A stretch of 64,000 bases of DNA from Akkermansiaceae bacterium (lineage in GTDB: Bacteria > Verrucomicrobiota > Verrucomicrobiia > Verrucomicrobiales > Akkermansiaceae): positions 28,114 through 92,113 of the forward strand of contig CAIXKE010000010.1 of NCBI GenBank assembly GCA_903919975.1, written 5' to 3'. Under the pieces are notes generated by a model. That model was given only the letters and a program-made list of their open reading frames with translations, did no database searches and was not told the origin of the DNA. The position numbers and the translations under genes were made by a program. How positions within the stretch are numbered: the stretch's first letter is position 1; the number at the start of each line of letters is the position of its first letter. Shown one piece after another: positions 3,591 through 56,568 of the stretch.

Positions 3591-4487
3591 TTATTTATCG
3601 GTGGATTTCGAGGGCTTGACGGCGGTGCGCTCGATGAACTCGATGATGGTTCCGGCGACGTCTTTTTTCGACGATTGTTCGATGCCTTCGAGGCCGGGGG
3701 AGGAATTCACTTCCATCACGACCGGGCCGTGATTTGAGCGGAGGAGATCGACGCCAGCGACGTTGAGGCCCATGGCCTTGGCGGCGGCGATGGCGACGGT
3801 CCGTTCTTGCGGGGTGATTTTGACTTTTTCGGAGGATCCGCCGCGATGGAGGTTGGAGCGGAATTCGCCTTTGGCGGCTTGGCGTTTCATCGATGCGACG
3901 ACCTTGCCGCCGACGACGATGCAGCGGATGTCAGCACCCTCGGCTTCCTTGATAAATTCTTGGACGAGGATGTTGGCGTTGAGGCCTTTGAATGCCTCGA
4001 TGACGGATTCTGCGGCGTTAGTGGTTTCCGCGAGCACGACGCCGACGCCTTGGGTGCCTTCGAGCAATTTGATGACGAGGGGGGCGCCGCCGCACATTTT
4101 GATCAACTCGCCGGTGGCGTCCGTGTGGTGGGCGAAGCCGGTGATGGGCAGGCCGATGCCTCGTTTCGCGAGGATTTGCAATGAACGGAGTTTGTCGCGC
4201 GAGCGGGCGATGGCCACGGAATCGTTGAGCGAGAAGACGTTCATCATTTCAAATTGGCGGACGACGGCATTGCCGTAAAACGTGTGTCTGGCGGCGATCC
4301 GCGGAATCACCGCGTCCGCCACGAGTTCCTCGCCATCCACGTAGATCCGTGGCTTGCGGGAGGTGATGTTCATGTAACAGCGGAGGTAGTCGACCACGCG
4401 GACTTCATGGCCGCGGGTCTCGGCGGCGGTCACGAGAGCGGAGGTGCTGTAGAGCTGCGAGTTACGGGAGAGGATGAGAATTTTCAT
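3591..4487 (-). CDS. rimK: Ribosomal protein S6 L-glutamate ligase (ATP-grasp)
   Basis: Full-length similarity to RimK recognisable by eye: MKILILSRN..., [70 protein letters not shown]. Confidence 0.9.
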
Positions 4488-4597
4488 GTGCTACAATGCG
4501 CGAATGCGTCCAATAGCCGATGGACCGGGTGGTCAATCAGAAAAGCAATCGATAACCGAGACTTGCCTGGAGGACTCTTACGCTCCATGGTCCGAGC

Positions 4598-4900
4598 ATG
4601 AACCCCGTCACCGAACGATTGAGAAATTTTCTGCAGTATGTGGCTGTGAAATTGATCGACGATCCCTCGCAGGCGCAATTGAAAGTGGCCGAGCTTGGGC
4701 CGAAAAAACTGCGTTTCAAGCTGGTGCTCGCTAGTGCGGATGTTGCGATGATGATTGGCCGCAATGGATTCACGGCATCGGCGATCCGAAATGTGCTGAA
4801 GGCTGCGGCGGACAAGGAAGGCGTGCAGGTTGCGTTGCAAATTCACTCGCATGAGGAGGAAGCGGAGTTGTTAGCGCGTGAGGGAGGGGGCGGAGCGTGA
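4598..4900 (+). CDS. KH-domain RNA-binding protein (UPF0109/YlqC-like)
   Basis: 100-aa ORF. The motif VAMMIGRNGFTASAIRNVL contains the GxxG KH loop typical of the UPF0109 family. Confidence 0.6.
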   Translation: MNPVTERLRNFLQYVAVKLIDDPSQAQLKVAELGPKKLRFKLVLASADVAMMIGRNGFTASAIRNVLKAAADKEGVQVALQIHSHEEEAELLAREGGGGA

Positions 4901-9515: not shown

Positions 9516-10064
9516 TTAAAAGCGGTTGAAGCGTTCCCGCGTCGAGCGATGGGATAAATTGGGTGTGGAGAATATCTGGGTGGCGAAGATCATTCCATCC
9601 GAGTCCACAACCACTCCGATTCCAGAGTAGATCCAATTATCGAGCATGTTTTTATGGTGATCCTTTGATAATTTCCAGAGTGGGAGGATATCCCGAGCGT
9701 TGGGGCTGGCAGCAACGTTTTCGCTGACGTTGGACATATTAAGATGTTCGCGTGCAACGATGGTTCGTGCGTCGAAGCCGAAATGGCTGACGTTTTTTCC
9801 ATTGATGCTGAAGTTGCCGCGGTGTTTGCGGAGATATTCAGAATGAGATTGAGCGAGTTTATCCAAACCGCTGTGGCGTTGGAGGTCTTGGCCGCCCTGG
9901 CTGCGGCGGTAGGCATTGATGTCACTGAACAGGCGTGAGGAGAGGGAGTTGTCGGCACTTGAAGATGCCGAAACAGGAATGTGGGATGGTCCGGCAGGCG
10001 GATTGGCGCAAGATGCCAAGCTGGCAACGCAAACCACGGTCATAACTCGAATTTTAGTATTCAT
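9516..10064 (-). CDS. Secreted CAP/SCP-domain lipoprotein (YkwD-like)
   Basis: Signal peptide with lipobox LASC. INAYRRSQGG..L.....L...AQSHSEYL, SENVAAS and W..S..HHKNML....YSGIGV match the CAP domain pattern. Confidence 0.7.
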   Translation of the reverse strand: MNTKIRVMTVVCVASLASCANPPAGPSHIPVSASSSADNSLSSRLFSDINAYRRSQGGQDLQRHSGLDKLAQSHSEYLRKHRGNFSINGKNVSHFGFDARTIVAREHLNMSNVSENVAASPNARDILPLWKLSKDHHKNMLDNWIYSGIGVVVDSDGMIFATQIFSTPNLSHRSTRERFNRF

Positions 10065-18045: not shown

Positions 18046-18435
18046 ATGCTCAAATCCGGAATTCTCAACCCGCATATTCTTGATCTCATCGCCCGAGTTC
18101 GTCATACCAACACCTTGGTGATTGCCGACTGGGCGTTTCCCTTCTGGCCGGAAATCGAAACGGTCGACATCTCGCTCACCCATGGCATCCCGACGGTTCT
18201 TGATGTGCTCGATTTGCTAACACCCGTTTTTAAAATCGGCCGTATCTGGCAAGCTGAGGAATTTGTGGCGACCAACACACCGGGAAATATCGCGCGTTTC
18301 GCGAAATCATTCGGTGATATTCCGTTGACGCGTGAGGCGCACATCGATTTCAAAAAGCGCGTGCCGCTCGCCATCGGCCTGATCCGCACTGGAGATCCGA
18401 CGCCTTATGGCAATGTGATTTTGGAATCGGCTTGA
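18046..18435 (+). CDS. RbsD/FucU-family sugar mutarotase/pyranase
   Basis: MLKSGILNPHILDLIARVRHTNTLVIADWAFPF matches the RbsD/FucU pattern (L.......l...GH.d.ivI.Da.fP). Start set at ATG 18046. Confidence 0.65.
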   Translation: MLKSGILNPHILDLIARVRHTNTLVIADWAFPFWPEIETVDISLTHGIPTVLDVLDLLTPVFKIGRIWQAEEFVATNTPGNIARFAKSFGDIPLTREAHIDFKKRVPLAIGLIRTGDPTPYGNVILESA

Positions 18436-19520: not shown

Positions 19521-21014
19521 TTACGGCAAATGGGTGACGCCCATGAGGAAGCGGTCGCATTCACGTGCGGCGGCGCGGCCTTCGTTGATGGCCCAGACGA
19601 CGAGAGATTGGCCACGGCGCATGTCGCCGGCGGCGAAGACGCCGGGGAGATTGGTGGTGAATTTCCCGTGTTCGGCTTTCACGTTCGAGCGGGCGTCGGT
19701 TTCGAGGGCGAATTGTTGGACGATGTCTTGTTCCGGACCCATGAAGCCCATGGCGAGCAGGGCGATTTGAGCGGGGATGATGCGGGCGCTGCCTTCTTTT
19801 TCCTTGGGAATGAAGCGGCCTTGGTCGTTGGTCCATTCGATATCGCAGATTTCGAGGCCTGATAGATTGCCGGCCTCATCCTTGATGAAGCGTTTGGTCT
19901 GCACCAAGTATTGGCGGGGATCCTGGCCTTGGACGGCGGCGGCTTCTTCTTGGCCGTAGTCCATCTTGTAAACCTTCGGCCATTCGGGCCATGGGTTGTT
20001 AGGCGCGCGCTCAAGCGGCGGTTGCGGCATGATTTCGAGTTGGACCACGCTATTGCAGCCGTGGCGGAGGCTGGTGCCCACGCAGTCGGTGCCGGTATCA
20101 CCGCCGCCGATGACGACGACGTCTTTGCCGGTGGCATTGAGAGCGGGGTTGCTGCCATCGAAACTATGGTCGAGTTGATAGCGGGTGTTCGAGGTGAGGA
20201 AATCCATAGCGAGATAGACGCCCTTGGCATCGCGGTTTTCGACCGGGAGGTCGCGGCCGAGAGTGGCACCGCAGCAGAGGACGATCGAGTCGAAGTCATT
20301 GCGAAGTTTTTCAGCGGTCCATTCAGCGTCTTTGCCGATGTGGACGCGGGTTTTGAAAACGATGCCTTCCTCGGCAAGCAGATTGACGCGGCGTTGCACG
20401 ACTTGCTCTTTATCGAGTTTCATGTTGGGGATGCCATACATGAGGAGTCCGCCGATGCGGTCTTCGCGTTCGAAAACGGTGACGCTGTGGCCGGCTTGGT
20501 TGAGTTGGTCGGCGCAGGCGAGACCGGCCGGGCCGGAGCCGATGATGGCGACTTTTTTACCGGTGCGGGTGGCGGGGATTTTTGGGACGACCCAACCTTC
20601 TTCCCAGCCTTTATCGATGATGGCGCACTCGTTGTTTTTGATGGTAACGGGTGGCTCGATGATGCCGAGCACGCAGGAACCTTCGCAGGGAGCGGGGCAA
20701 ACGCGACCGGTGAATTCCGGGAAGTTGTTGGTTTTGTGGAGACGTTCGAGGGCTTCCTTCCAGCGACCGCGGAAGATGAGGTCGTTCCATTCGGGAATCA
20801 GATTGTTGACCGGGCAACCGCTGGCCATTCCGGCGACGATGTGGCCGGTGTGGCAGAAGGGCGTGCCGCAGTCCATGCAGCGGGCACCTTGGGCACGGCG
20901 ATCTTTATCATCGCCGTGATTCTTGAATTCCCGCCAGTTTTTGAGGCGTTCGATTGGTGCGGTTTCCGAATCGGTCTTGCGATCGATTTCCATGAATCCT
21001 GTTGGCTTGCCCAT
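19521..21014 (-). CDS. gltD: Glutamate synthase (NADPH) small subunit
   Basis: Cys clusters CMDCGTPFC and CPAPCEGSC, an FAD/NAD Rossmann [14 protein letters not shown], and [18 protein letters not shown]. Confidence 0.95.
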
Positions 21015-21021
21015 ATAATTA

Positions 21022-21034
21022 GAAATTTGAGATT
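21022..21034 (-). repeat. Copy 1 of intercistronic core motif (sense AATCTCAAATTTC) in the gltB-gltD spacer
   Basis: Plus-strand GAAATTTGAGATT. A one-mismatch second copy, GAAATTTGTGATT, lies at 21036-21048. Confidence 0.9.
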
Positions 21035-21060
21035 AGAAATTTGTGATTTGAAATGATCGA

Positions 21061-24000
21061 TCAATTACCGCCGACGCGGGAGAGGTCGTTGATGTTTTGC
21101 TCGAAGGCGGCCATGGCGGCTTCGTCGCCGGAGAGGCCGGATTCTTCGACTTTGCGGAAGCATTCCAGCATGCGTTCGTAGTCGCGGGGGAAGACTTTGG
21201 AGAACTTCGGTAACTCGGCATCCCAATTTTCGAGCAGATATTTGCCGCGGGCGGAATTCGTCAGTTCGACGTGATTTTCGATTTCCGCCTTGAGGATGGC
21301 GATGTCCGAATCCCCGCACTCGACGAGTGGATAGAGATTGACCATTTCCTTGTTGAGGCGTTTTTCAAACATTCCGTCGATATCATAGACGTAGGCGATG
21401 CCGCCGGACATGCCTGCGGCGAAGTTGCGTCCGGTTGCGCCGAGCACGACGACTTGGCCGCCGGTCATGTATTCGCAGCCGTGGTCGCCGACGCCTTCGA
21501 CGACGGTTCTGGCGCCGGAGTTGCGGACGCAGAAGCGTTCGCCGGCGATGCCGTTGATGTAGGCCTCGCCGGAGGTGGCGCCGTAGAAGGCGACGTTTCC
21601 GATGAGGACGTTATCCTCGGCTTTGAAGAGCGATCCGGCGGGCGGATAGATGACGATTTTCGCGCCTGAGAGTCCTTTCCCGACGTAGTCATTGGCATCG
21701 CCTTCCAGCACGAAGGTCATGCCCGGGGGAGTGAATGCGGCGAACGATTGGCCGGCGCTGCCATTGAACTTCAGATAGATCGTGTCTTCCGGGAGGCCCT
21801 TGCCACCATGTTTGCGGGTGACTTCGCTGCCGGTGATGGTGCCGACGACGCGGTTGACGTTGATGATCGGGAGTTCGGCACGGACTTTTTCGCCGCGTTC
21901 GATGGCGGGTTTGCAGAGCGCGAGCAGGTGGGTGTTGTCGAGTGCGAGCTTGAGGCCGTGATCTTGCGCTTTCTGGCAATAGGCACCGACATCATCGCCG
22001 ACATCCGGTTTGTGGAAGATGGTGGTGAGGTCCACGCCTTTGGCTTTCCAGTGATTGGTGGCTTCGGCGGTTTCGAGGCATTCCACGTGACCGACCATTT
22101 CATTGACCGTGCGGAATCCGCATTCGGCCATGATTTCGCGCATTTCCATGGCGATGAAGGTCATGAAATTGACGACATGCTCGGGTTTGCCTTCGAAGTT
22201 TTTGCGGAGGACGGGATCTTGGGTGGCGATGCCGACCGGGCAGGTGTTTTTCTGACAGACGCGCATCATCAGGCAGCCGACGGTGACGAGCGGGGCGGAT
22301 GCGAAACCGTATTCCTCGGCACCGAGCAAGGCGGCGATGGCGACGTCGCGGCCGGTTTTGAGTTGGCCGTCGGTTTCGAGGACCACGCGGCTGCGGAGAT
22401 CGTTGAGCAGGAGGATTTGGTTCGTTTCCGCGAGGCCGAGTTCCCATGGGGCGCCGGCATTGTAGATCGAGGACGATGGGGAGGCGCCGGTGCCGCCATC
22501 ATGACCTGCGATGAGGATGACATCGGCATGAGCCTTGGCCACGCCGGCGGCGATGGTGCCGACGCCGACTTCCGCCACGAGCTTCACATTGATGCGTGCG
22601 CGTGGGTTGGCATTTTTCAAGTCATGAATGAGCTCGGCGAGGTCTTCGATCGAGTAGATGTCATGGTGCGGAGGAGGGGAGACGAGGCCAACGCCGGGGG
22701 TCGAGTAGCGGACCTTGGCGATCCATGGATAGACCTTGGAGCCTGGGAGTTCGCCGCCTTCACCGGGTTTAGCACCTTGTGAAATCTTGATTTGGATTTC
22801 ATCGGCGTTGACGAGGTATTCGCTGGTGACGCCGAAGCGGCCGGAGGCGACCTGTTTGATGGCGGAGCGTTTGCTATCGCCGTTAGGCATCGTGACGTAG
22901 CGTTCCGGATCTTCGCCGCCTTCGCCGGTGTTCGATTTACCGCCGATGCGGTTCATCGCGATGGCGAGGGTTTCGTGAGCTTCTTGAGAGATCGATCCGT
23001 AAGACATGGCGCCGGTTTTGAATCGGCGGGTGATGGCTTCGATCGGCTCGACTTCATCGATGGAGATCGGTTTGCGACTGCTGCGGAAACGCATCAGGCC
23101 ACGCAGGGTCGAGAGGTTCTCGCTCTGCGTGTTGACCTTGGCGGCGTATTGTTTGTAGATCTCATAGCTGCCGGTGCGTGTTGCTTTTTGGAGCAGGTGG
23201 ATGGTTTCCGGGTTGAAGAGGTGGTATTCGCCATCGCTGCGCCATTGATAGAGGCCGCCGGAATCGAGTGCGCGTTCTTCGGTCTCGATGTGGCGGTCCG
23301 GGAATGCGTCGCGGTGGCGGATGAGGGTTTCCTCGGCGATTTTTTCGATGTTGGAGCCTTCGCAACGGCTGGAGGTGCCGCTGAAGAATTTGTTCACCAG
23401 ATCGGTGCTGAGGCCGATGGTCTCGAAGATCTGTGCTCCGCGGTAGGAGGCGACGGTCGAGATGCCCATCTTCGCCATGGTTTTGACGACTCCTTTGATC
23501 GATCCTTTGAGGAAGTTGTAGACCGCCTTGTCGAAATCCATGTCCAGCATCTGATCGTTGATCATTTGATGGATGGAATCGAAAGCCATGTAGGGGTTGA
23601 TGGCGTCCGCGCCATAGCCGATGAGGGTGGAGAAGTGGTGGACTTCGCGTGCCTCGCCGGTTTCCAAGATGATCGAGACCAAGGCGCGTGTGCCGGAGCG
23701 CACGAGGTGGTGATGCAGACCGCCCATGGCGAGCAATGTTGGCATCGCGGCGTTAGCGGCGTCGAGGTTGCGGTCCGAAACGATCAAGAGGTTGAAGCCA
23801 TCGGCGATCGCTTGGTCGGCGGCGGCGCAGAGGGAGTCGAAGGCCTTGTTGAGTCCTTCGCCACCTTGATCGGCGGGGAAGAGTGCATCGAGCGTGGTGG
23901 CTTTGAAACCGGTGAGCGAAACCTCGCGTAGTTGGGCGAGTTGTTTGTTATCGAGCAGCGGGCTGTCGAGGCGGATCATGCGGCAGCTTTGCGGGCCGGG

Positions 24001-25731
24001 ATCGAGGAGATTTCCCTCGGAGCCAAGGAAGGTTTCGGTGGCGGTGACGAGTTCCTCGCGGATGCAATCGAGGGCCGGGTTGGTGACCTGGGCGAAGATC
24101 TGTTTGAAATACTGATAGATCAGCTTCGATTTGTTCGAGAGCACGGCGAGCGGCGTATCGTTGCCCATCGAGGCGATCGGTTGGACGCCGGATGAGGCCG
24201 TGGGTCCGAGCAACATGCGCAGATCTTCATAGGTGTAGCCGAACGCGAGTTGGCGTTCGATGATGCGGGATTCCTCGATTTTTTCGGGGGTTTTGGGTTG
24301 CGGCAGGTCCTTGAGGAACACGCGGTTTTCATCTAGCCATTTTTGATAGGGTTTGGCGGAATAGACGCGTTGTTTGACTTCCTCGTCGGGGACGATGCGG
24401 CCTTCTTTCATGTCCACGAGGAACATACGGCCGGGGCGGAGTCGGCCTTTTTCGATAACGGTTAGAGGGTCGAGATCCGGGATGACGCCGACTTCGGAGG
24501 CCATGATGACGAGGTCATCCTGGGTGACGTAGTAGCGGCTTGGGCGGAGGCCGTTGCGGTCGAGCACGGCGCCGATTTGTTGGCCATCGGAGAAGGTGAT
24601 GGATGCCGGGCCGTCCCAAGGTTCCATCATGCAGGCGTGGAATTCGTAGAAAGCTTTCTTTTCCGCATCCATCATGGTGTGGCGTTCCCAAGGCTCGGGA
24701 ATCATCATCATCATGGCGTGGACGAGGTCATAGCCGCCGAAGTGCATGAATTCGAGGGCGTTGTCAAAGCGAGCGGAGTCCGAGCCATCCTCGTTGATGA
24801 CCGGAAAGATGCGCGAGATGTCTTTGCCGAACTTATCGCTCTGGCAAAGCGCTTGGCGGGCTTTCATGAAATTGGCATTGCCCATGACCGTGTTGATTTC
24901 GCCGTTGTGGGCGATGAAACGGTTTGGATGGGCGCGTGACCAACTCGGGAAGGTATTGGTCGAGAAGCGAGTGTGCATCAGGGCCAGGGCGGACTCGAAG
25001 TCCGGGTCATGAAGATCCGGGAAATACTCGGCGAGTTGACATGGGGTGAGCATGCCTTTGTAGACCATGGTGCGCGCGGAAAGATTGGTGACGTAATGGT
25101 AATCACCACCGGGGAAATTGTTCGACTTGTTGCCGTGGACATCGGCGTATTTCGAGGGCACTTCGTTGTCACGAATCCATGCGGCGACGCGTTTGCGGAT
25201 GATGAAGAGCACGCGCTCGAATTCCATCGGATCGGTGATGCTCGGGTTTTTGCCGATGAACACCTGTTTGATGGAGGGTTCGTAGTGGCCCGAGGTTTTG
25301 CCGAGGATTTCGCTTTTGGTGGGGACGGTGCGCCAACCGATGAATTTTTGGCCTTCCTCGCGGATGACGTGTTCGAAGACCTGCATGGCGGCCTCGCGCT
25401 CGCTGGTATCGGGCGACATGAAGACGAGGCCTGAGCCGTAATCGCCTTCGACGGGCAATTCGATGTCTTTTTTTGCCATTTCCTTGCGCAGGAATTTATC
25501 GGGCATTTGGACGAAAATTCCGGCGCCGTCACCGGTGGCGGGATCGGATCCACTGGCACCGCGGTGATCCATTTGGGCGTTCATCGTGAGAGTTTTCACG
25601 ATGATATCATGGGAGCGTTTGCCTTTGAGGTGGGCAATGAATCCGACGCCGCACGAATCCTTTTCGCGCGAAGGATGCCAAAGGCCCTGAGGTTCGGGCC
25701 AGCCAAGTGGGGATTTCTGAGAAGCGGGCAT
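21061..25731 (-). CDS. gltB: Glutamate synthase large subunit
   Basis: Amidotransferase N-terminus [17 protein letters not shown] plus FMN and GXGXG domains over roughly 1550 aa. ATG at 25731 preferred over the TTG at 25740. Confidence 0.95.
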
Positions 25732-26264
25732 GGGAATCAATTTCTGGAGGATTGGAGTGTGCTGAATGATGTTGAGCTCGGTGAAGAGAGCATGGGCGAA
25801 GATGTTGAGAATCCAAGGGATCCGGCCGCCGGGAGGCTCGCGAAAGTCGGGAAACGCAGGAAACCCATGACGACCGGGCGGGGAATCTGCTTTTCGGCAT
25901 CAACCCTGTCAAGACTCGGAGACCCCATGCGGGTGAATTTGCCGAATTCCGGGCAGGCGGGAAAAAGCGCAATGGTTTCTTTGAGATTCGGTGTCGCCGA
26001 TCGGCGGATTTACGCGGTGAAATAGTATTTACTGAGTAATTTTACGAGGTTTTTTGGAGGGTGGCTTATAACCGTTAGAACACGCAGACAGCCAATGAGT
26101 TATGGATTTTTGGAAGAGTGTATTTTTTATTTGCAAATTTTAAAAGTTCTACGTTGCTTCGTTGTTTGTTTGAGATGTGGAAGGTCTGCCGATTCGGCTC
26201 CTCCTAGGCATGAAGCGTCGAAAACCCCAACCCCATATTAAAAACCACTGAAAAAGCACGTTTC

Positions 26265-27356
26265 ATGCCATCCCCTGTATTGCGAAGCAAGTTCCCCCCA
26301 TTCCTTTTTTCAACAATTCACCGTTTATTCGACTCCGGAAATCCGGAGTTATCCGCCGCAGGTTGGTCGTTGCGCCGATGGTGCCTGATTGCCTTGGTGG
26401 TTCTCGGATTGCCGTTCGCGTTTGCGACATCGGCCATGGCCCAGAGTTCGCCAATCTTGACGTGGAATTCCAATCCGGAATCCGACATTGCCGGATACAT
26501 CGTCCATCTTGGAACGGCGAGTGGTAACTATTCGGTGGTGCAGGATGTTGGAATGCTGACGAGTTACACCTTTTCCGGGCTTTCATCCTCCACGGTTTAT
26601 TATTGTGCGGTTCAGGCTTATAACACTGCTGGAATGACCAGCGGTATTTCCTCTGAGCTCTCGTTTACGCCCCAATCGACCACCGTGGTTCCGTGGTCGT
26701 CTTCGCCAATTTTGTCATGGAGTTCCAACCCTGAATCCGACATTGCCGGCTACATCGTCCATCTTGGGACCGTGAGAGGCAACTATCCGGTGGTTCAGGA
26801 TGTTGGAAAAGTGATGAGTTACGTTTTTTCCGGGCTTTCATCCTCCACGGTTTATTATTGTGCGGTTCAAGCCTACAATGTGGCTGGATTGATGAGCGAT
26901 ATTTCCTCTGAAATCTCATTTTCGCCGCAATCGGCCGTTGCTGTTTTCAACACGTGGGCGTCTTCGAGCGGTTTGAGCGGGGCGACTGCGGCACCGTCAG
27001 CCATGCCATTTCAGGATGGGGTGAAGAATGTTTTGAAATATGCATTCAACATGAATGCTGGTGCTGCGGACACTCGAATCTTGAAGGCGGGAGTTGGCAC
27101 GGTCGGATTGCCGGTATTCAGCATGAATCAAAGCAAATCGCCGCCATCCTTCACGGTTGAGTTTATCAAGCGCAAAGGAAGTGGGCTGGTTTATAGTCCG
27201 AAGAGCTCCACCGATCTTAAGGTGTTCCAGTCGATGAATGAGACGCCGACGGTCACGAGTATCGATGCGACATGGGAGCGGGTTAAAATCGAGAGGCCCA
27301 TCAACAGCGTGACCACTCCGAAGCTCTTCGGCATCGTGGAGGTGACCCTGCCATAA
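26265..27356 (+). CDS. Secreted protein with two tandem fibronectin-type-III-like repeats and an uncharacterised C-terminal domain
   Basis: Signal/TM segment. Two 85-aa repeats (SSPIL.W.SNPESDIAGYIVHLGT..GNY.VVQDVG...SY.FSGLSSSTVYYCAVQAYN.AG) with an FN3-like pattern. The C-terminal roughly 140 aa are unassigned. Confidence 0.65.
   Translation: MPSPVLRSKFPPFLFSTIHRLFDSGNPELSAAGWSLRRWCLIALVVLGLPFAFATSAMAQSSPILTWNSNPESDIAGYIVHLGTASGNYSVVQDVGMLTSYTFSGLSSSTVYYCAVQAYNTAGMTSGISSELSFTPQSTTVVPWSSSPILSWSSNPESDIAGYIVHLGTVRGNYPVVQDVGKVMSYVFSGLSSSTVYYCAVQAYNVAGLMSDISSEISFSPQSAVAVFNTWASSSGLSGATAAPSAMPFQDGVKNVLKYAFNMNAGAADTRILKAGVGTVGLPVFSMNQSKSPPSFTVEFIKRKGSGLVYSPKSSTDLKVFQSMNETPTVTSIDATWERVKIERPINSVTTPKLFGIVEVTLP
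26445..26954 (+). repeat. Tandem 255-bp coding duplication (2 copies, roughly 85% identical by eye)
   Basis: AGTTCGCCAATCTTGACGTGG at 26445 versus TCTTCGCCAATTTTGTCATGG at 26700. Includes an identical stretch, TTTTCCGGGCTTTCATCCTCCACGGTTTATTATTGTGCGGTTCA. Confidence 0.9.
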
Positions 27357-31961: not shown

Positions 31962-32678
31962 ATGAGTACCAAATCGAAGAAAAAAGCCCAAACGGGAGTT
32001 CGTTATAGCAACGAAGAAAAACAGAAGGTCGTTGATTTTGTCAGCGAATATAACTCCTCAAAAGGACGTGGCGGACAAAGCGTAGCTGCTAAGAAATTCA
32101 AAGTCACACCTCTCACGATCGCTACATGGATCAAGAGTTTGGGTAAGAAGGCCGCAACACCTGCGAAGGCTCTTAAGCCTGTGAAAGCCGCCAAGGCAGC
32201 GAAGCCTGCGAAAGCCGCAAAGCCTGCAAAAGCCGCAAAAGCCGCAAAAGCCGCAAAAGCCGCAAAGCCTGCGAAGTCAGCTGGTGCGAGCAAGATGGGC
32301 GTGCGTTATAGCCCCGAGCAAAAGCAAGAAGTTGTGAAATTCGTTCAGGATTTCAACGCTGCCAATGGTCGCGGTGGCCAAAGCCGTGCCGCTGATAAGT
32401 TCAAACTTTCCGTTCTCACTGTTTCCGCATGGCTCAAGGCCGCAGGCGTGAAGGGTGGCAAGGTTGCCAAGGCTCCGAAGGCAGCCAAGGTTAGCAAGAA
32501 GGCCGCTAAGGGCGCTGTGGTGAAGGCTGCAAAGTCCTCCGCCGCACCAACCGGTCTCGCCGCCAAGGTGGCTTCTCTGGTTAATATCAGCGAGCAAGTC
32601 AACCAAGCTGAGAAGGAACTCGAAAAGCTTTATGCCAAGCACGATGCCATCATGGCTTCGATCAAGAGCTTGGTCTGA
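31962..32678 (+). CDS. Lys/Ala-rich histone-H1-like protein with duplicated transposase-OrfA-type HTH module and C-terminal coiled coil
   Basis: Two homologous modules: GVRYSNEEKQKVVDFVSEYNSSKGRGGQSVAAKKFKVTPLTIATWIK and GVRYSPEQKQEVVKFVQDFNAANGRGGQSRAADKFKLSVLTVSAWLK. They are separated and followed by AKPAKAAK-type repeats. The end, QAEKELEKLYAKHDAIMASIKSL, is coiled-coil-like. Confidence 0.6.
   Translation: MSTKSKKKAQTGVRYSNEEKQKVVDFVSEYNSSKGRGGQSVAAKKFKVTPLTIATWIKSLGKKAATPAKALKPVKAAKAAKPAKAAKPAKAAKAAKAAKAAKPAKSAGASKMGVRYSPEQKQEVVKFVQDFNAANGRGGQSRAADKFKLSVLTVSAWLKAAGVKGGKVAKAPKAAKVSKKAAKGAVVKAAKSSAAPTGLAAKVASLVNISEQVNQAEKELEKLYAKHDAIMASIKSLV
32232..32267 (+). repeat. Perfect 9-nt tandem repeat GCCGCAAA(A/G) x4 inside the Lys/Ala region
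   Basis: Read directly from the sequence. Embedded in a longer AAG-CCT/GCC-GCA low-complexity stretch from about 32175 to 32276. Confidence 0.9.
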
Positions 32679-33234: not shown

Positions 33235-33243
33235 CTTAGATTT

Positions 33244-33256
33244 GAAATTTGAGATT
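33244..33256 (-). repeat. Copy 2 of intercistronic core motif (sense AATCTCAAATTTC) in the gcvP-NUDIX spacer
   Basis: Plus-strand GAAATTTGAGATT. The last T is part of the gcvP stop codon. The whole 21-nt spacer is motif sequence. Confidence 0.9.
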
Positions 33257-40150: not shown

Positions 40151-40321
40151 GGTGGGAAGGGGTCGGAAAGTCAGAAGGTCAAAAGTCGAAGGTCTGAAGA
40201 TTAGAGGCTTCTTTTTTGAGTAGTTATTGGTTCATGAAAGAATTTAACCACTGATTGCACTGATTTACTGATTGGGTTTCTGGTTTAAAATCTTCTTCTG
40301 TGAAATCTGTGTAATCTGTGG
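40151..40321 (-). repeat. 171-nt mutA-mutB intercistronic spacer composed of three blocks of degenerate 7-9-nt tandem repeats
   Basis: Plus-strand blocks: GGTCGGAAAGTCAGAAGGTCAAAAGTCGAAGGTCTGAAG (40161-40198), CACTGATTGCACTGATTTACTGATT (40249-40272) and CTGTGAAATCTGTGTAATCTGTGGTT (40298-40323). Confidence 0.85.
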
Positions 40322-42367
40322 TTAAATGACACCCGCAATTTTAAGCAATTGCTCATTCAACTCGTAGTTGTTGCTGCGGACGTTGACGAATTCATCGACG
40401 CCGGCGGCGCGCCAGGCGGCTTCGTTTTCTCCGGGCGCGCCGGCGACTAACAGGGTGATGCTTGGTTTCGCGGCTTTCGCGGCGGTGGCGAGGGGTTCGA
40501 CGGTGGTGAGGTAGGTGGCATCGTCGGAGGTGATAACGGCGATTTCCGCCTTACTGTCGGTTAGGGCTTTGATGGCTTCCTCAATGGTTGGAAAGTCGCG
40601 TGCGCCATCGATGACGAAACCGGCGGCTTCGAAGAATGAAGCGGTCCAGTCGGCGCGGAGGCGGTAGCGGCCGGAGGGGCCGATGTTGAGTTGGAGGATT
40701 CCTGGAGCGGAACCGGTCTTATTCGTGAAGGTTGCGGATGCGTCGTGCAGGGTTTCGTATTCCTCGGCGGCGCGGTGTGGCGGCAAGGCGGTGACGGTGG
40801 GTGCGCCATCGGAGTTGGTGAGTCCGGTGGCGATGGCGAGCGAGAATTTCGACGCTCCGGCTTTGGCTGCGGCGATGGCTTCGATGACCATGGCGGCGGT
40901 GGCGGACTGAGTGCCGGCAGCGGGTTGAGCGATTGGGTAGGCGGCTGCGGCGACCTCGGCAGCTTTGCATTCCGGGGCGTGGATGGCGAGTTTTTTGCCC
41001 TTGAGATCGGGATACATGTTGGACCCAACGATCTTGTCTTTGCGGATGCGGATGTTTTTGAACTTGGCCTTGCAGACGTCTTGCACGGCTTGTTGGACTG
41101 AGCCGCTTTCGAGGGCGGCGATCATACCGCCTTGTTTTTCGATGTCTTGGAATATGGACCAGCTTTTCCCGGCGATTTGAGCGGTGAGCCACTCGATGTA
41201 GGTTGAGCCGCCGGCGGGGTCGATGACGTGATCGAGTCCACATTCTTCGCGGAGGATGGTGTGGAGGTTGCGGGCGATGCGGCGTGAGAATTCATCAGTG
41301 TGGCCGGCGATTTCATCGTAGGGGCCGATGTGGAGGCTATCGACGCCGCCGACGACGGCGGCGAAGGCTTCGGCGGTGACGCGCAACATGTTGGTATGGG
41401 CGTCGTAGGTGGTTTTATTCCACTTTGAGGTGCTGGCGTGGATGTGGATGGGGGCGTTTTGCACGCCGTAAGCTGCGGCGACCTTGCTCCAGAGCATGCG
41501 GGCGGCGCGGATTTTTGAGATTTCCATGAAATAGTCCGAACCGATCGCGAGGCGGATGCGGATGTGGGGCAGGACGGTTTCCGCAGAGATGCCGCGGGAT
41601 TTCATTTCCTCGAGGTAACACACGAGAGTGGAGATGATATACGCCAGTTCTTGGGTGGCGGTGGCCCCGGCGTTGTGATAGACATCGCCTTGGATCGAGA
41701 TGGTGCGGAGCTGTGGGGCGTTTTTGGCCGCGTAGTCGGTGAGTGCGGCCATGTGGTCGAAGCGCAGGGCGAGCGACTGGCGGAGTTTGCCCTTGGCGAC
41801 GAGTTCTGCGAGTGGGTCGTTATCGATGCCGCCACGGAGTTTGGAGGCGGGTATGCCGGCTTGTTCGGCGGCGGCGATGAAGAGCGCGGTGACCGGGACG
41901 CTGGCGGGACCGGTTTGGAGATAGGTTGAAATGGAGTCCAGAGCGACTTTGGAGAGGGCGGTGGTGAAGTCAGCGGCGGTGGTGATTTTTGCGCCGCCGG
42001 TGCAGCATTCATCGGCACCGCAGCCGACGGGGATGTTGAGTTCGGATTGGCCGCCGTTGAGTCCTTCGTGGATGAGAGAGTTGAGTGATTCCGGGGATGT
42101 CGCTCTGAGTTCTTGAGAGACTTCCCAGCCGGCTGTTAGAAATCCTGCGGCGTGGCTGCCGCGGACGAGGGATCCTGAGCCAGGGAAGTGTTTGCGTTGC
42201 TCGAGATCTGCGATGTCTTCGCGGCGGTAGATCGGCTGAATTGTGATATCCTCGTAGGTTTGGCTGACGAGGCGTTTTTCAAATGGCGCGCCTTTGAGGA
42301 GGGCCTCGGCGGCGGCGTGCCATTGTTCGTAGGTGTGCTCCGGGAATTCGGATAGAAGAAGGGACAT
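40322..42367 (-). CDS. mutA: Methylmalonyl-CoA mutase small (beta) subunit
   Basis: 681 aa, MCM-fold homolog directly upstream of the alpha subunit, with the beta-type N-terminus W......LKGAPFEKRLV..TYE.I.IQPIY. Confidence 0.85.
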   Translation of the reverse strand: MSLLLSEFPEHTYEQWHAAAEALLKGAPFEKRLVSQTYEDITIQPIYRREDIADLEQRKHFPGSGSLVRGSHAAGFLTAGWEVSQELRATSPESLNSLIHEGLNGGQSELNIPVGCGADECCTGGAKITTAADFTTALSKVALDSISTYLQTGPASVPVTALFIAAAEQAGIPASKLRGGIDNDPLAELVAKGKLRQSLALRFDHMAALTDYAAKNAPQLRTISIQGDVYHNAGATATQELAYIISTLVCYLEEMKSRGISAETVLPHIRIRLAIGSDYFMEISKIRAARMLWSKVAAAYGVQNAPIHIHASTSKWNKTTYDAHTNMLRVTAEAFAAVVGGVDSLHIGPYDEIAGHTDEFSRRIARNLHTILREECGLDHVIDPAGGSTYIEWLTAQIAGKSWSIFQDIEKQGGMIAALESGSVQQAVQDVCKAKFKNIRIRKDKIVGSNMYPDLKGKKLAIHAPECKAAEVAAAAYPIAQPAAGTQSATAAMVIEAIAAAKAGASKFSLAIATGLTNSDGAPTVTALPPHRAAEEYETLHDASATFTNKTGSAPGILQLNIGPSGRYRLRADWTASFFEAAGFVIDGARDFPTIEEAIKALTDSKAEIAVITSDDATYLTTVEPLATAAKAAKPSITLLVAGAPGENEAAWRAAGVDEFVNVRSNNYELNEQLLKIAGVI

Positions 42368-42376
42368 TTGATAGGT

Positions 42377-42389
42377 GAAATTTGAGATT
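42377..42389 (-). repeat. Copy 3 of intercistronic core motif (sense AATCTCAAATTTC) in the CoA-transferase-mutA spacer
   Basis: Plus-strand GAAATTTGAGATT. A hairpin, GTTGGC-GAGAT-GCCAAC, follows at 42402-42418. Confidence 0.9.
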
Positions 42390-42427
42390 TGGAAATCAGT
42401 GGTTGGCGAGATGCCAACGCTCCTTGA

Positions 42428-43915
42428 TTAGAACTTTGTGTTCCGCATGTCGCCGGATTCGAGGAAGGCTTCGTGGAAAGCGAAGGCGGAGCGGAACGAT
42501 TGCGGAGTGTGGCCGTTTTCGGTGAGTTGGAAGTATTTCCAGAGGAGATCCCGGTAGGATGGATCGACACAATTTTTGATGACCAATGCGGCGCGTTCGC
42601 GGGGGTCCTTCCCTCGGAAGTCGGCGACGCCGTGTTCGGTGACGAGGACTTGGACTGAGTGTTCGCTGTGGTCCATGTGCGAGCACATCGGGACGATGGC
42701 CGAGATGTTGCCATCCTTGGCGGTGGATGGGCAGGTGAAGATCGAGATGTAGGCGTTGCGGGTGAAATCTCCGGAGCCACCGATGCCGTTCATCATTTTT
42801 TGGCCGAGCACGTGGGTGGAGTTGATGTTACCGAAGATATCAGCTTCGAGCGCGGTATTGATCGAGATGATGCCGATGCGGCGGACGATTTCCGGGTTGT
42901 TGGCAATTTCCTGTGGGCGGAGGAGCAGACGACCGCGGAAGGCGTCCAGATTGTCATAGATGCTTTGCAGGACGGGATCGGTGACGGTGAGGGAAACGCC
43001 ACTGACGAAGGAGCAGCGGTCTTGTTTGACGAGGTCGATGACGGAGTCCTGGATGACTTCCGAATACATCTGGAAGGTCGGGATTTCCGGGTGGTCGCCC
43101 ATGGCGCCGAGCACAGCGTTGGCGACGTTTCCGACTCCGGATTGGATTGGCAGGAAACCTTTCGGAATGTGGCCGTTGCGGATTTCGGCGGCGAGGAATT
43201 CGGCGACGTTGAGGCCGATCTTGGTGGTGACATCGGTGACCGGGGAGAAGTCTTTGACTTCGTCGTTGCGGTTCGAGTGGACGATGCCGACGATTTTTTT
43301 GGGATCGACCCAGACGCGTTGGGTGCCGATTCGGTCATCGGCGGCGCAGATCGGGATCGGGCGGCGGTGGGGTGGTGATGCGGGTTCGTAGATATCGTGG
43401 AAGCCTAACAACTGCTTTGGATGGCGGTTGTTCACTTCGATGAGGATTTTTTTCGCTTGGGTGAGGAAAGTGGGGGTGGCACCGACGCTGGTGGTGAGGA
43501 GAATTTTTCCATCTGCGGAGACATCTGCGGCTTCGACGATGGCCCAATCGAGTTCCCCGAGGAATCCGTAGCGGACATATTGGGGGAGCAGGGAAAGGTG
43601 CATGTCGAAGAAATGCGTTTTCCCGGCGTTGATGCTGGCGCGGAGGTCCTTATCCGACTGATAGGGGGTGCGGAACTTGATGGAATCCGCTTTCGCGAGC
43701 GCGCCATCGAGTGAAGGGCCGGTGGAGGCGCCGGTGATGACACCCACTTTAAAATCCCGACCTGCGGTGTGTTCGGCGATGGCTTTTTCAGCGATGGCGG
43801 TGGGGATTACCTTGGCGGCACCGGCGGGGGTGAAGCCGCTGAAGCCGATATTTTCGTCATGATTGATGAAGGCGGCGGCTTCTTCCGGGGTGAGGACGGG
43901 ATATGGACTGTTCAT
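42428..43915 (-). CDS. Acetyl-CoA hydrolase/transferase-family succinyl-CoA:propionate (acetate) CoA-transferase
   Basis: N-terminus EEAAAFI.HDENIGFSGFTPAGAAKVIP, ITGASTGPSLDG, and FRTPYQSD..LR..IN.G...F.DMHLS, as in ScpC/AarC-type CoA transferases. Start set at ATG 43915. Confidence 0.8.
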   Translation of the reverse strand: MNSPYPVLTPEEAAAFINHDENIGFSGFTPAGAAKVIPTAIAEKAIAEHTAGRDFKVGVITGASTGPSLDGALAKADSIKFRTPYQSDKDLRASINAGKTHFFDMHLSLLPQYVRYGFLGELDWAIVEAADVSADGKILLTTSVGATPTFLTQAKKILIEVNNRHPKQLLGFHDIYEPASPPHRRPIPICAADDRIGTQRVWVDPKKIVGIVHSNRNDEVKDFSPVTDVTTKIGLNVAEFLAAEIRNGHIPKGFLPIQSGVGNVANAVLGAMGDHPEIPTFQMYSEVIQDSVIDLVKQDRCSFVSGVSLTVTDPVLQSIYDNLDAFRGRLLLRPQEIANNPEIVRRIGIISINTALEADIFGNINSTHVLGQKMMNGIGGSGDFTRNAYISIFTCPSTAKDGNISAIVPMCSHMDHSEHSVQVLVTEHGVADFRGKDPRERAALVIKNCVDPSYRDLLWKYFQLTENGHTPQSFRSAFAFHEAFLESGDMRNTKF

Positions 43916-48063: not shown

Positions 48064-48990
48064 TTACTCGGGATGCGGTTCATCCGGATCCTGATGCCAC
48101 GGGATGCCATGATTGGCATTGCGTTGGAGTTCGGCGATGACCTGGGCTCCGAGGAGAAGGATTAATGCGACGGCTTCCATTGTGAGGAGAACGATGATGA
48201 TAGTGGTCATCGAGCCATAGAGCGCATTGATTGATGAGATGTGTGTGTAATAGGCGACTAGCAAGTGGCGGGTGATTTCCCACAACACGGCGGCGGTGAA
48301 GCCACCGGCCAGCGCGCGGCCGAAAGAAACGCGGGCCACGGGCATGATCTTGTAGAGAAGTGTGAAAAGCAGGACGAGTCCCAGAATCCCGGTTAGGTAA
48401 AGGAGCGGGCCGACGTAGGGATCGACGAGTTGTTTGATTGCCGGAAAGTGCGTGAGGATGCCGACGCGGGCGTCGATGATGGCATTTACGGAGGTGATGA
48501 GGATGAGACCGGCGGCGACGATCAGGATGAATAGGTAGGGAAGCAGGGCGGAAACCCAGAACTTGCGTTTGAGTGAGGGCAGCGGGCGGTGGAAGATGAT
48601 CGCGAAGGCATCCTCCAAGACTCGGAAGGCCTTTGAACTGAAAAACATCAGTGTCACGAGGCTGATTCCTCCGACCACTCCGCGGTTGTCGAGAAATCCT
48701 TCCAGCACCTCGGACACCGTGGGTATGAGGCCCGGTGCGATGAGGGAGACCTCCGCGGTTAGCGAATTCATCAACAACTGCCGGTCGAACAGTCGTGAGA
48801 AAACCACCATCAGCACGGTGCAGAGGGGGATGAGTGAGAGCATCACATTGAAGGCCACGGAGCCGGTGAGCAGCAGTCCATGGTTTTGTAGGAAGAAATC
48901 CCTCAGCACGCGGCTGACGAAGCGGATCACTTGCGGGAGACGCCTATTCATCGTGTGGGCATTATGTGCCGGAAACGCGGGGCGAGGCAA
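48064..48990 (-). CDS. yihY: YihY/BrkB-family inner-membrane protein
   Basis: Six TM segments. GLLLTGSVAFNVMLSLIPL and INALYGSMTTIIIVLL are family-typical. Alternative start at 48951. Confidence 0.75.
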   Translation of the reverse strand: MPRPAFPAHNAHTMNRRLPQVIRFVSRVLRDFFLQNHGLLLTGSVAFNVMLSLIPLCTVLMVVFSRLFDRQLLMNSLTAEVSLIAPGLIPTVSEVLEGFLDNRGVVGGISLVTLMFFSSKAFRVLEDAFAIIFHRPLPSLKRKFWVSALLPYLFILIVAAGLILITSVNAIIDARVGILTHFPAIKQLVDPYVGPLLYLTGILGLVLLFTLLYKIMPVARVSFGRALAGGFTAAVLWEITRHLLVAYYTHISSINALYGSMTTIIIVLLTMEAVALILLLGAQVIAELQRNANHGIPWHQDPDEPHPE

Positions 48991-49039: not shown

Positions 49040-49053
49040 GGGGGGGGGGGGGG
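49040..49053. repeat. G14 homopolymer in the yihY / DUF47-pit divergent intergenic region
   Basis: Counted directly from the sequence. Flanked by complementary AAACAG and CTGTTT, followed by T7. Confidence 0.95.
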
Positions 49054-53413: not shown

Positions 53414-53540
53414 TTTGGTAAAAGCTGAGATGCTGAAAAGCTGAGAAGCTGAAACTTAGGAGGTAAAAGCTGAGAAACTGAAAAGCTGAGAAGCTAAAAT
53501 TTGGAAGAAAGAGAGATTTGAAATTTGAGATTTGAAATCT
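53414..53540 (-). repeat. 127-nt E1beta-E2 spacer: two 38-nt direct repeats of AAGCTGAG-type octamers plus copy 4 of the core motif
   Basis: Direct repeats at 53417-53454 and 53462-53499 (35/38 identical). GAAATTTGAGATT at 53520-53532 within GAGATTTGAAATTTGAGATTTGAAATC. Confidence 0.9.
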
Positions 53541-56384: not shown

Positions 56385-56568
56385 GGCGGGAGGATGGATT
56401 GCGGAAGCGGGCGAGCCAAGCGGAATGGTGGGACTCAAGGCGTGTTGGCGTCTCGCCAACAGTCATCGCTAGACGAGAATTGTGGGCGAGATGCCCAGAC
56501 TCCTTGATTTTACGCGTGACCCGCCGTTATGGGAAAGGCATTTTCGCCGCACCAATCAATACGACCCC

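Follow-up and report, generated by a model that had tools for sequence, protein, structure and literature searches.

How does a ribosome find the start of gltD in a lineage without Shine-Dalgarno (SD) sequences, and why should the short spacer in front of this gene be built from a repeat? We examined these questions in a 64,000-nucleotide stretch of DNA from an Akkermansiaceae bacterium (assembly GCA_903919975.1, contig CAIXKE010000010.1, positions 28,114 to 92,113; hereafter the window, position 1 being its first letter), in which gltB and gltD, the genes for the large and small subunits of glutamate synthase, follow one another on the minus strand with 46 nucleotides (nt) between them. A preliminary description of this spacer, made from the sequence alone, had read it as two copies of one motif, well placed to control the coupling of the two genes. 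We find that the spacer is a heptanucleotide simple sequence repeat (SSR). From comparison of sequences we consider it somewhat probable that this repeat gives gltD an AU-rich, SD-independent initiation region, free of structure and of competing start codons, that was made by slippage and selected for its composition.

A heptanucleotide array in the gltB-gltD spacer

The open reading frame (ORF) list and Pfam place gltB at 21061..25740 on the minus strand. Its longest ORF, of 1559 amino acids (aa) from a TTG (start unrefined), carries the GATase_2, Glu_syn_central, Glu_synthase and GXGXG domains and stops at a TGA at 21063-21061. The gltD gene (19521..21014, minus strand) encodes 497 aa, by Pfam a GltD-like Fer4_20/Pyr_redox_2 protein, and begins with an ATG at 21014-21012. 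A start codon stands at the matching position in 79 of 80 relatives' loci, the 80th lying too near the end of its contig to be checked, and the start motif ATGGGNAARCC is kept in all 32 of the relatives' loci printed.

The intercistronic spacer (21015..21060, minus strand) has exactly the sense-strand sequence quoted in the preliminary description: it holds a single G in 46 nt, lacks GGAG, GAGG and AGGA alike, and contains no ATG, GTG or TTG in any frame of the sense strand. The exact 13-mer AATCTCAAATTTC (21022..21034, minus strand) and its one-mismatch copy AATCACAAATTTC (21036..21048, minus strand; exact in sister strains) are likewise both present where that description put them. They are better parsed, however, as portions of a longer array. 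Read in the sense direction, the spacer runs tcgatca, TTTCAAA, TCACAAA, TTTCTAA, TCTCAAA, TTTCTAA, ttat and then ATG, that is, five tandem heptads (21019..21053, minus strand) followed by a partial unit, TTAT (21015-21018, minus strand), that adjoins the gltD start codon. The program TRF reported a period-14 array at 21018-21054 (2.6 copies, 91% matches, score 60); the period is 14 because the five heptads alternate, and the true repeat unit is 7 nt (T-Y-W-C-W-A-A). Four nucleotides lie between the last full heptad and the ATG (three, counted from the TRF array). Having at least three head-to-tail 7-nt units, the spacer belongs with the heptanucleotide SSRs of the long SSR (LSSR) or STRR type.

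Several more familiar arrangements of the junction were considered and rejected. Fusion of GltB to GltD by readthrough or frameshifting would meet a TAA 13 codons past the TGA, and gltD lies in another frame. For a small ORF within the spacer, the sense strand offers no start codon, and on the opposite strand a TGA interrupts every frame. A termination-reinitiation element for translational coupling fits poorly with the 46-nt gap, the different frame of gltD and a gltB 3' end without an SD.

The same motif at other junctions of the window

In the window the exact 13-mer is found four times, where 100 dinucleotide-preserving shuffles lead one to expect 0.00, and with up to one mismatch it is found five times, where the shuffles give 0.20. 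This recurrence is not due to chance. At all four exact copies the minus strand is the sense strand and the copy lies in a spacer between co-directional genes; three of the four arrays end 0-12 nt upstream of a start codon, the remaining one about 100 nt upstream. The 21-nt spacer between gcvP and a NUDIX gene (33235..33255, minus strand) is nearly all heptad array, reading (TG)A, ATCTCAAATTTCAAATCTAAG, ATG. At the junction of an acetyl-CoA hydrolase/transferase gene with a methylmalonyl-CoA mutase (MCM) family gene (40322..42367), the array ATTTCCAAATCTCAAATTTCACCTATCAA (42368..42396, minus strand) adjoins the ATG of the latter. The more distant array, AGATTTCAAATCTCAAATTTCAAATCTC (53513..53540, minus strand), lies directly 3' of the E1beta stop codon in the E1beta-E2 pair, which encodes 2-oxoacid dehydrogenase subunits; it is also present in sister strains, and a sister-strain contig carries a further copy at a distance of about 11 kb. 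Four intergenic loci in 64 kb thus share the same unit, as is the habit of SSRs, and the presence of the 13-mer at three other co-directional junctions leaves no room for the idea of an element specific to gltBD.

Further G-poor arrays of other units occur beside these. The second part of the E1beta-E2 spacer is an 8/16-nt array, (CAGCTTYT)n (53414..53512, minus strand), that ends 6 nt before the E2 ATG; this 99-nt block is missing in sister strains X2, X12 and X15, which have 6-14 nt instead. In the same metagenomes the (CAGCTTYT)n unit is multi-copy, with contig depth up to about 40-fold higher over 53421-53459. The 171-nt spacer between the genes for the small and large MCM subunits has at its 3' end a period-7/8 array, (GACYTTY)n (40155..40199, minus strand), about 10 nt before the ATG. 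That spacer as a whole (40151-40321, minus strand) is a patchwork of three copies of CACAGATNN, three of AATCAGTNN and five of GACYTTY.

A mobile miniature repeat, of the miniature inverted-repeat transposable element or repetitive extragenic palindrome type (MITE/REP), was rejected as the source of the copies: no complementary arm is found in the window, all matches lie on one strand, the ends are undefined and the unit is 7 nt.

Initiation regions with little predicted structure and without competing starts or SD sequences

The organism is a freshwater member of the Verrucomicrobiaceae. Its GltD shares 88-90% identity with proteins from metagenome-assembled genomes of Verrucomicrobiaceae and Luteolibacter, the relatives of its E1beta include Haloferula and Rubritalea, and near-identical DNA is present in lake and freshwater metagenomes. 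Verrucomicrobiales, like Bacteroidia, were reported in a 2024 study to be globally without SD sequences (PMC10798248). Our counts agree with this report: an SD-like core precedes 2 of 15 well-delimited genes of the window and 16 of 129 independently called genes of relatives, and in control loci from outside the Planctomycetes-Verrucomicrobia-Chlamydiae (PVC) group the figure was 9 of 27. Because the report and these counts coincide, the missing SD is a trait of the lineage. The preliminary description was right that the spacer has no SD; as a peculiarity of this spacer the observation does not stand. The host lineage is one that does not use SD sequences, which is the setting expected of an SD-independent initiation region.

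SD-less Bacteroidetes have been described as relying on weak structure for initiation and as depleted of AUG close to their starts (PMC6847099). The predicted minimum free energy (MFE) of the region from -40 to +20 is -2.2 kcal/mol at gltD and between -0.2 and -4.5 at the other three array sites, against a background of -13.3 +/- 5.2 for random 60-mers of the same strand. Three array-rich spacers (194 nt) contain no ATG, GTG or TTG, against about 7.3 expected; bacterial start codons all end in G, and a G-free leader is therefore without competing starts. The weak structure and the absence of start codons in the array spacers parallel the SD-less Bacteroidetes (PMC6847099), and on these predicted properties the surroundings of gltD look like those of an SD-independent initiation region.

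Searches for other kinds of signal gave the following results. Rfam, run over the whole window, returned a tRNA elsewhere only and no family at the array sites. A scan of 20800-21300 for sigma-70 promoters and intrinsic terminators found none, and the RNA fold of the spacer plus its flanks had a z-score of 0.05 against shuffles. A structured cis-regulatory RNA (riboswitch, leader or Rfam family) was rejected on the missing Rfam match and this z-score. The array has no significant complementarity to 16S rRNA when E. coli rrsB stands in for the host's own: the longest run is 9 nt, against a shuffle mean of 10.9, and such pairing was rejected. The RNA-seq runs consulted for co-transcription and processing contained relatives alone (at most 26% of words), and their contigs break off at the edges of the spacer. 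Palindromes of the form GATCGATC lie at the gltB stop (21054-21063) and at gltD codons 9-11 (20981-20988); a predicted long-range stem between them, enclosing the spacer and the start, is absent in the relatives L002 and L004 and, with the z-score of 0.05, was taken as chance.

Turnover of the spacer among relatives

Sister strains (about 98% identity) have the gltB-gltD spacer without insertions or deletions and with one substitution: plus-strand position 21044 is A, not T, in X9, X12 and X15, so that both 13-mers are exact there. In X12 the spacer differs at 1 of 46 positions and the flanks at 6 of 274, which are similar rates. No copy-number polymorphism was seen at this spacer in the contigs of X1, X2, X9, X12 and X15, with the proviso that assembled contigs drop rare variants, and a phase-variable contingency SSR was rejected on the absence of spacer indels from the assembled contigs of these five near-identical strains.

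Between species the picture changes. Loci L002 and L004, whose GltD is 88% identical to that of the window, have the spacer TTTCAAATCTCAAATTTCA[AG]ATCTCTAATCAA-ATG, which contains four heptads in the register to the ATG seen in the window, where there are five. This difference in copy number between relatives (five versus four) points to an SSR that changes by slippage. L001 (GltD 90% identical) and L003 (81%) have unrelated spacers from which the motif is missing, and spacers are likewise unrelated in other related lineages found in metagenomes; next to the ATG, all of these are again G-poor. More distant Verrucomicrobiota (L008, L012, L033, L072) have different short tandem arrays at the gltB-gltD junction, G-free or G-poor, with CTCAAAC-type units in L008 and CTTCCAACTCCTAG in L072.

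The E1beta-E2 junction behaves similarly. The closest relatives have other arrays there (TTTCSRA, TTTCARY, CAGYWTYT), and further relatives have spacers of 5-30 nt without repeats, mostly with few G. In locus L202, a two-gene cassette (4077-4798) encoding a 90-aa protein and a PIN-domain protein, toxin-antitoxin-like, splits the E1beta/E2 junction. Across the two junctions, the spacers keep their composition while sequence and length change, and selection seems to act on composition rather than on sequence.

These comparisons bear on two tests that the preliminary description had set for its own proposal. It had held that orthologous spacers of close relatives lacking the motif, with gltD still normally expressed, would refute it, and L001 and L003, from which the motif is missing, largely supply that outcome. 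It had also named a mobile repeat family inserted at random as damaging; the motif does belong to a multi-locus repeat family, and its placement in this lineage is not random.

Position, strand and frequency of the arrays

The 81 GltD loci (L001-L080 plus the window) contain 67 period-7/14 arrays, of which 30-32 are followed within 45 nt by an ATG at the head of an ORF of 100 aa or more. When genes were called independently in eight Verrucomicrobiaceae loci, six intergenic arrays proved to stand no more than 12 nt from a start; every one of them is poor in G on the sense strand (none is G-rich). Taking the window and its Verrucomicrobiaceae relatives together, 13 of 13 leader arrays have fewer G than C on the sense strand.

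Heptamer arrays stand directly before gltD in 9 of 81 cases and before other genes in 21 of 791 (Fisher p about 0.001; about 4-fold), an excess that shared ancestry shrinks to about 6-8 independent cases, the test not being corrected for phylogeny. The cases include the cyanobacteria L015 and L063, and self-match in gltD leaders peaks at lags 7 and 14. We treat this excess before gltD as a lead only.

In some other Verrucomicrobiota (L033, L032, L049) a reverse-complement array lies 15-80 nt upstream of the heptamer array. The pairs are at 9889-9917 and 9957-9989 in L033, 18558-18580 and 18636-18665 in L032, and 18299-18336 and 18349-18383 in L049; the second array directly precedes a start codon in L033, where the gene is gltD, and in L032. 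Such paired inverse arrays could fold into long hairpins in the leader and hide the start region. No reverse-complement partner of the array was found in the window, where all matches are on one strand.

A heptad family across phyla

In metagenome contigs from several phyla, more than 100 of them, the 19-mer AATCTCAAATTTCWRATCT is matched exactly at least 120 times. Among the matches listed, the contigs span 31 to 71% GC and the matches are arrays, typically of 4-5 heptads and at most of 20. The family has the unit ARATYT plus C; in reverse complement the hexamer is unchanged and a G takes the place of the C, and in some cases the complement of an array follows it. Match orientation was scored by first-ATG tests and exact look-ups of called proteins, as longest-ORF calls are unreliable at arrays: the C-strand has no stop codons and ORFs run through it. 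In 7 of 7 cases tested, a start predicted immediately behind a C-type array agreed exactly with a called protein.

C-type arrays directly precede adk of Cloacibacterium and ilvD of Candidatus Anammoximicrobium (names from database sources), and in L087 (minus strand, upstream of 5944) a gene whose product we take from its sequence to be ribosomal protein L3 (rplC). G-type arrays precede, again by database names, rpsM (Binatia/Deltaproteobacteria), asnB (Ignavibacteria) and ispF (Prevotella); at rpsM an SD lies between the array and the ATG. Array loci before housekeeping genes include L153 (3059-3097), L124 (2749-2806), L087, L146, L147 and L171. Because orientation to the downstream ORF is unbiased overall, the heptad family as such is a DNA-level simple sequence repeat. 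Either strand of an array gives a three-letter RNA with little structure; in leaders of the SD-less Verrucomicrobiaceae the G-free strand alone is seen. A search for the heptamers CAAATCT, AGATTTG, GAGATTT and AAATCTC found no paper describing them in the library searched.

Comparison with known systems

The closest published analogue of the gltD array is the TAACTGA heptamer, whose direct repeats are found close to starts in marine Beggiatoaceae, some Cyanobacteria and Bacteroidetes (MacGregor 2015, PMC4679880). Those repeats also come as two to six direct 7-nt copies, in forward orientation, a few nucleotides from the start and over the place of the ribosome-binding site. All four window sites are forward, without an SD core, and three adjoin the ATG. 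In both cases a canonical SD is rare in the spacers and the downstream genes are diverse, ribosomal protein genes included (here the presumed rplC of L087). The unit in the window is different (TYWCWAA/ARATYTC) and so is the phylum, which makes the two the same kind of element but not the same family; moreover, the array described here is G-free and start-codon-free, lies in a globally SD-less lineage, and has relatives in both orientations elsewhere. A translational function of the TAACTGA repeats, through S1, Csp or CsrA, has been proposed, not proven.

As a repeat, the array resembles the heptamer repeats known from cyanobacteria as STRR. It also resembles the long SSRs with heptanucleotide units (Mrazek et al. 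2007, as cited in PMC4679880). Like these, it consists of tandem 7-nt units in intergenic DNA, occurs at many loci per genome, is specific to lineages, and expands and contracts. Unlike them, since they are defined by repetition alone and follow no rule of position or strand, the arrays here have about 3-5 units, mostly adjoin starts and are biased in strand. With the phase-variable SSRs of 5' untranslated regions (UTRs), such as the AGAT repeats of Moraxella uspA2 (cited in PMC4679880) and those of H. influenzae (PMC12721329), the array shares its place between an upstream signal and the start, as a tandem repeat through which a change in copy number can adjust expression. It differs in showing no copy-number polymorphism in the five near-identical strains, and gltD is a housekeeping gene, not a contingency locus.

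The leader of tobacco mosaic virus (TMV), omega, and the AU-rich enhancers found upstream of the SD in E. coli are translational enhancers, rich in AU or CAA and poor in G, to which ribosomal protein S1 binds. The array is similarly G-poor, unstructured and (C)A/U-rich with short internal repeats, and the mechanism proposed for it would also be independent of pairing to rRNA; it has no sequence homology to these enhancers, the E. coli ones act together with an SD, and S1 binding is putative here. The SD-independent regions of Bacteroidia and Verrucomicrobiales are alike in lacking an SD, in low structure, in depletion of starts and in an A/U-rich leader (PMC6847099, PMC10798248). Their published determinants are, however, positional (A at -3, -6 and others), no regions built from repeats have been described among them, and gltD has U at -3.

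Weighing the explanations

If the gltD leader is an SD-independent initiation region, as we hold to be rather more probable than the alternatives below, its action could be pictured as follows. Without SD pairing, ribosomes would need an accessible, AU-rich single strand, to which ribosomal protein bS1 or another OB-fold protein should also bind well, and they would need a start codon free of competitors. A G-free array would supply both accessibility and a sole start, and ribosomes leaving gltB or binding de novo would take the first AUG. Replication slippage would create and resize such arrays, making the length and strength of a spacer easy to alter. The element is most likely generic to the junctions of this lineage and not a device for balancing GltB and GltD. 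Of the control of coupling that had been proposed, a role at the gltD start is plausible, and a role in the balance of the two subunits is unsupported.

Several observations weigh against the idea that the repeat serves initiation. Many operon-internal initiation regions without repeats have an equally weak predicted structure. Position -3 of gltD lacks the A that is favourable in SD-less Bacteroidetes (A is found at 2 of 4 array sites, and the rule comes from Bacteroidetes and E. coli, not from Verrucomicrobiales). The 19-mer family shows no bias in orientation, with 21 C-type and 28 G-type arrays among the matches listed and real genes behind both, and a purely compositional constraint fails to explain the exact reuse of 13- to 19-mers across loci and phyla. 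A general 7-nt periodicity is absent from the leaders of the 129 called genes of relatives. Arrays are a minority solution, and the repeat as such may add nothing beyond composition.

Part of this evidence would equally suit a neutral SSR, a quasi-palindromic heptamer (ARATYT plus C) that slips into being wherever non-coding DNA tolerates it and does nothing for gltD. We regard this as possible, though unlikely. Heptanucleotide SSRs are the most abundant class of long SSR in prokaryotes (Mrazek 2007, as cited in PMC4679880), the array is missing in L001 and L003, whole arrays are gained or lost between sister strains at E1beta-E2, the number of heptads varies between species (five versus four), the orientation of the metagenome matches listed is unbiased, and the X12 figures for spacer and flanks reveal no extra constraint. 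Neutrality alone would not lead one to expect that all 13 leader arrays of the lineage are G-poor on the sense strand and mostly adjoin a start codon, that array-rich spacers hold no start codons, that the replacement spacers of relatives stay G-poor beside the ATG, or that three species share the register to the ATG. This conserved register of the heptads, together with the reuse of the exact 13-mer at four junctions and the identity of a 19-mer in many organisms, could also be taken as the mark of a site for a sequence-specific trans-acting regulator, protein or small RNA, with AATCTCAAATTTC defining a regulon of gltD, the NUDIX gene, MCM and E2 and perhaps setting GltB:GltD stoichiometry; the TAACTGA repeats have been so interpreted, with S1, Csp or CsrA as candidates (PMC4679880). 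We think such a site improbable, as the four downstream genes have no evident common pathway, orthologous junctions of relatives use other heptamers or none, sequence constraint between strains is not raised, the window holds no complementary partner array, and complementarity to 16S rRNA is insignificant (9 nt versus 10.9 by the E. coli rrsB proxy).

Two further readings have less in their favour. RNase E prefers AU-rich single strands, and a cut by an enzyme of the RNase E/Y type could separate the gltB and gltD messages, give them differing stabilities and so adjust the subunit ratio. The spacer lies between cistrons, is rich in A and U and is predicted to lack structure, and all four sites lie between co-directional genes, three of the pairs being subunits or partners of one multi-enzyme pathway; yet arrays also precede genes in other contexts and other phyla, and nothing sets an endonucleolytic processing site apart from a plain initiation region, which makes this very unlikely. 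Hardly to be expected at all is an element acting in the DNA, whether an internal promoter, an UP-like element or an array for a nucleoid or regulatory protein; what is recognised would then be the AT-rich hexamer palindromes AAATTT and AGATCT, 7 bp apart. The occurrence of the family in both orientations across phyla and the AT-rich island that the array forms in a 57% GC genome would accord with it, against which stand the absence of a sigma-70-like promoter or terminator from 20800-21300, the strict strand bias in this lineage and the gcvP-NUDIX gap, where an array filling 21 nt leaves no room for a promoter plus leader.

A stronger form of the SD-independent reading would make arrays of ARATYT plus C a modular, slippage-evolvable substitute for the SD, docking bS1 or another OB-fold protein that would bring ribosomes to start codons, preferentially at junctions of co-directional genes such as gltB-gltD and E1beta-E2; the unit would then recur by way of a conserved ribosomal component, and the enrichment before gltD would be real. 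The unit does recur in Verrucomicrobiota, Planctomycetota and Bacteroidota, among which Bacteroidia and Verrucomicrobiales are reported to be SD-less. From these sequence patterns we consider so strong a form doubtful.

Other repeats in the window

Several repeats of other kinds were recorded in the window. An element of about 33 nt, AATCAAGGAG-NN-T(G/T)GGCATCTCGCC(A/C)AC, occurs twice (42396-42428 and 56478-56512, both minus strand) and joins a TTGGC-N5-GCCAA hairpin to a perfect SD-like AAGGAG, an odd hexamer in an SD-poor genome. One of the two stands after the stop codon of the acetyl-CoA transferase gene and the other in the divergent region 56460-56481, with a third copy of the palindrome beside it (56445-56459, plus strand); at up to two mismatches the element has 5 matches against 0.55 expected. 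A C14 tract (49040-49053, minus strand), flanked by inverted AAACAG/CTGTTT and lying about 50 nt upstream of the ORF 48064..48990 (minus strand), could either be prone to slippage or form a hairpin whose loop consists of C. Two repeats are internal to proteins: a 255-bp tandem duplication (26447-26933, plus strand; 1.9 copies, 84% identity) inside the ORF 26265..27356, and a 9-bp AAAGCCGCA array of about 10 copies (32184-32269, plus strand) inside the ORF 31962..32678.

Implications for initiation in Verrucomicrobiales

How Verrucomicrobiales initiate translation without SD pairing is a question raised by the study that described the trait, which reports no determinants (PMC10798248); a literature search found no work on such determinants beyond it. 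Were the arrays only neutral microsatellites, the finding would be an ordinary one. Were they a genuine substitute for the SD, its interest would be much higher, and the enrichment of arrays before gltD would reflect a requirement that the small subunit be initiated independently and tunably behind a gene of 1500 codons. For annotation, the result counsels caution: heptad spacers of this kind are to be read as typical of the lineage, not as gene-specific regulators. For the biology of the group, it suggests that some intercistronic initiation regions of Verrucomicrobiales are built from G-free heptads without structure or competing starts, and that these repeats turn over fast between relatives while their composition is kept, which provides a concrete and testable hypothesis.

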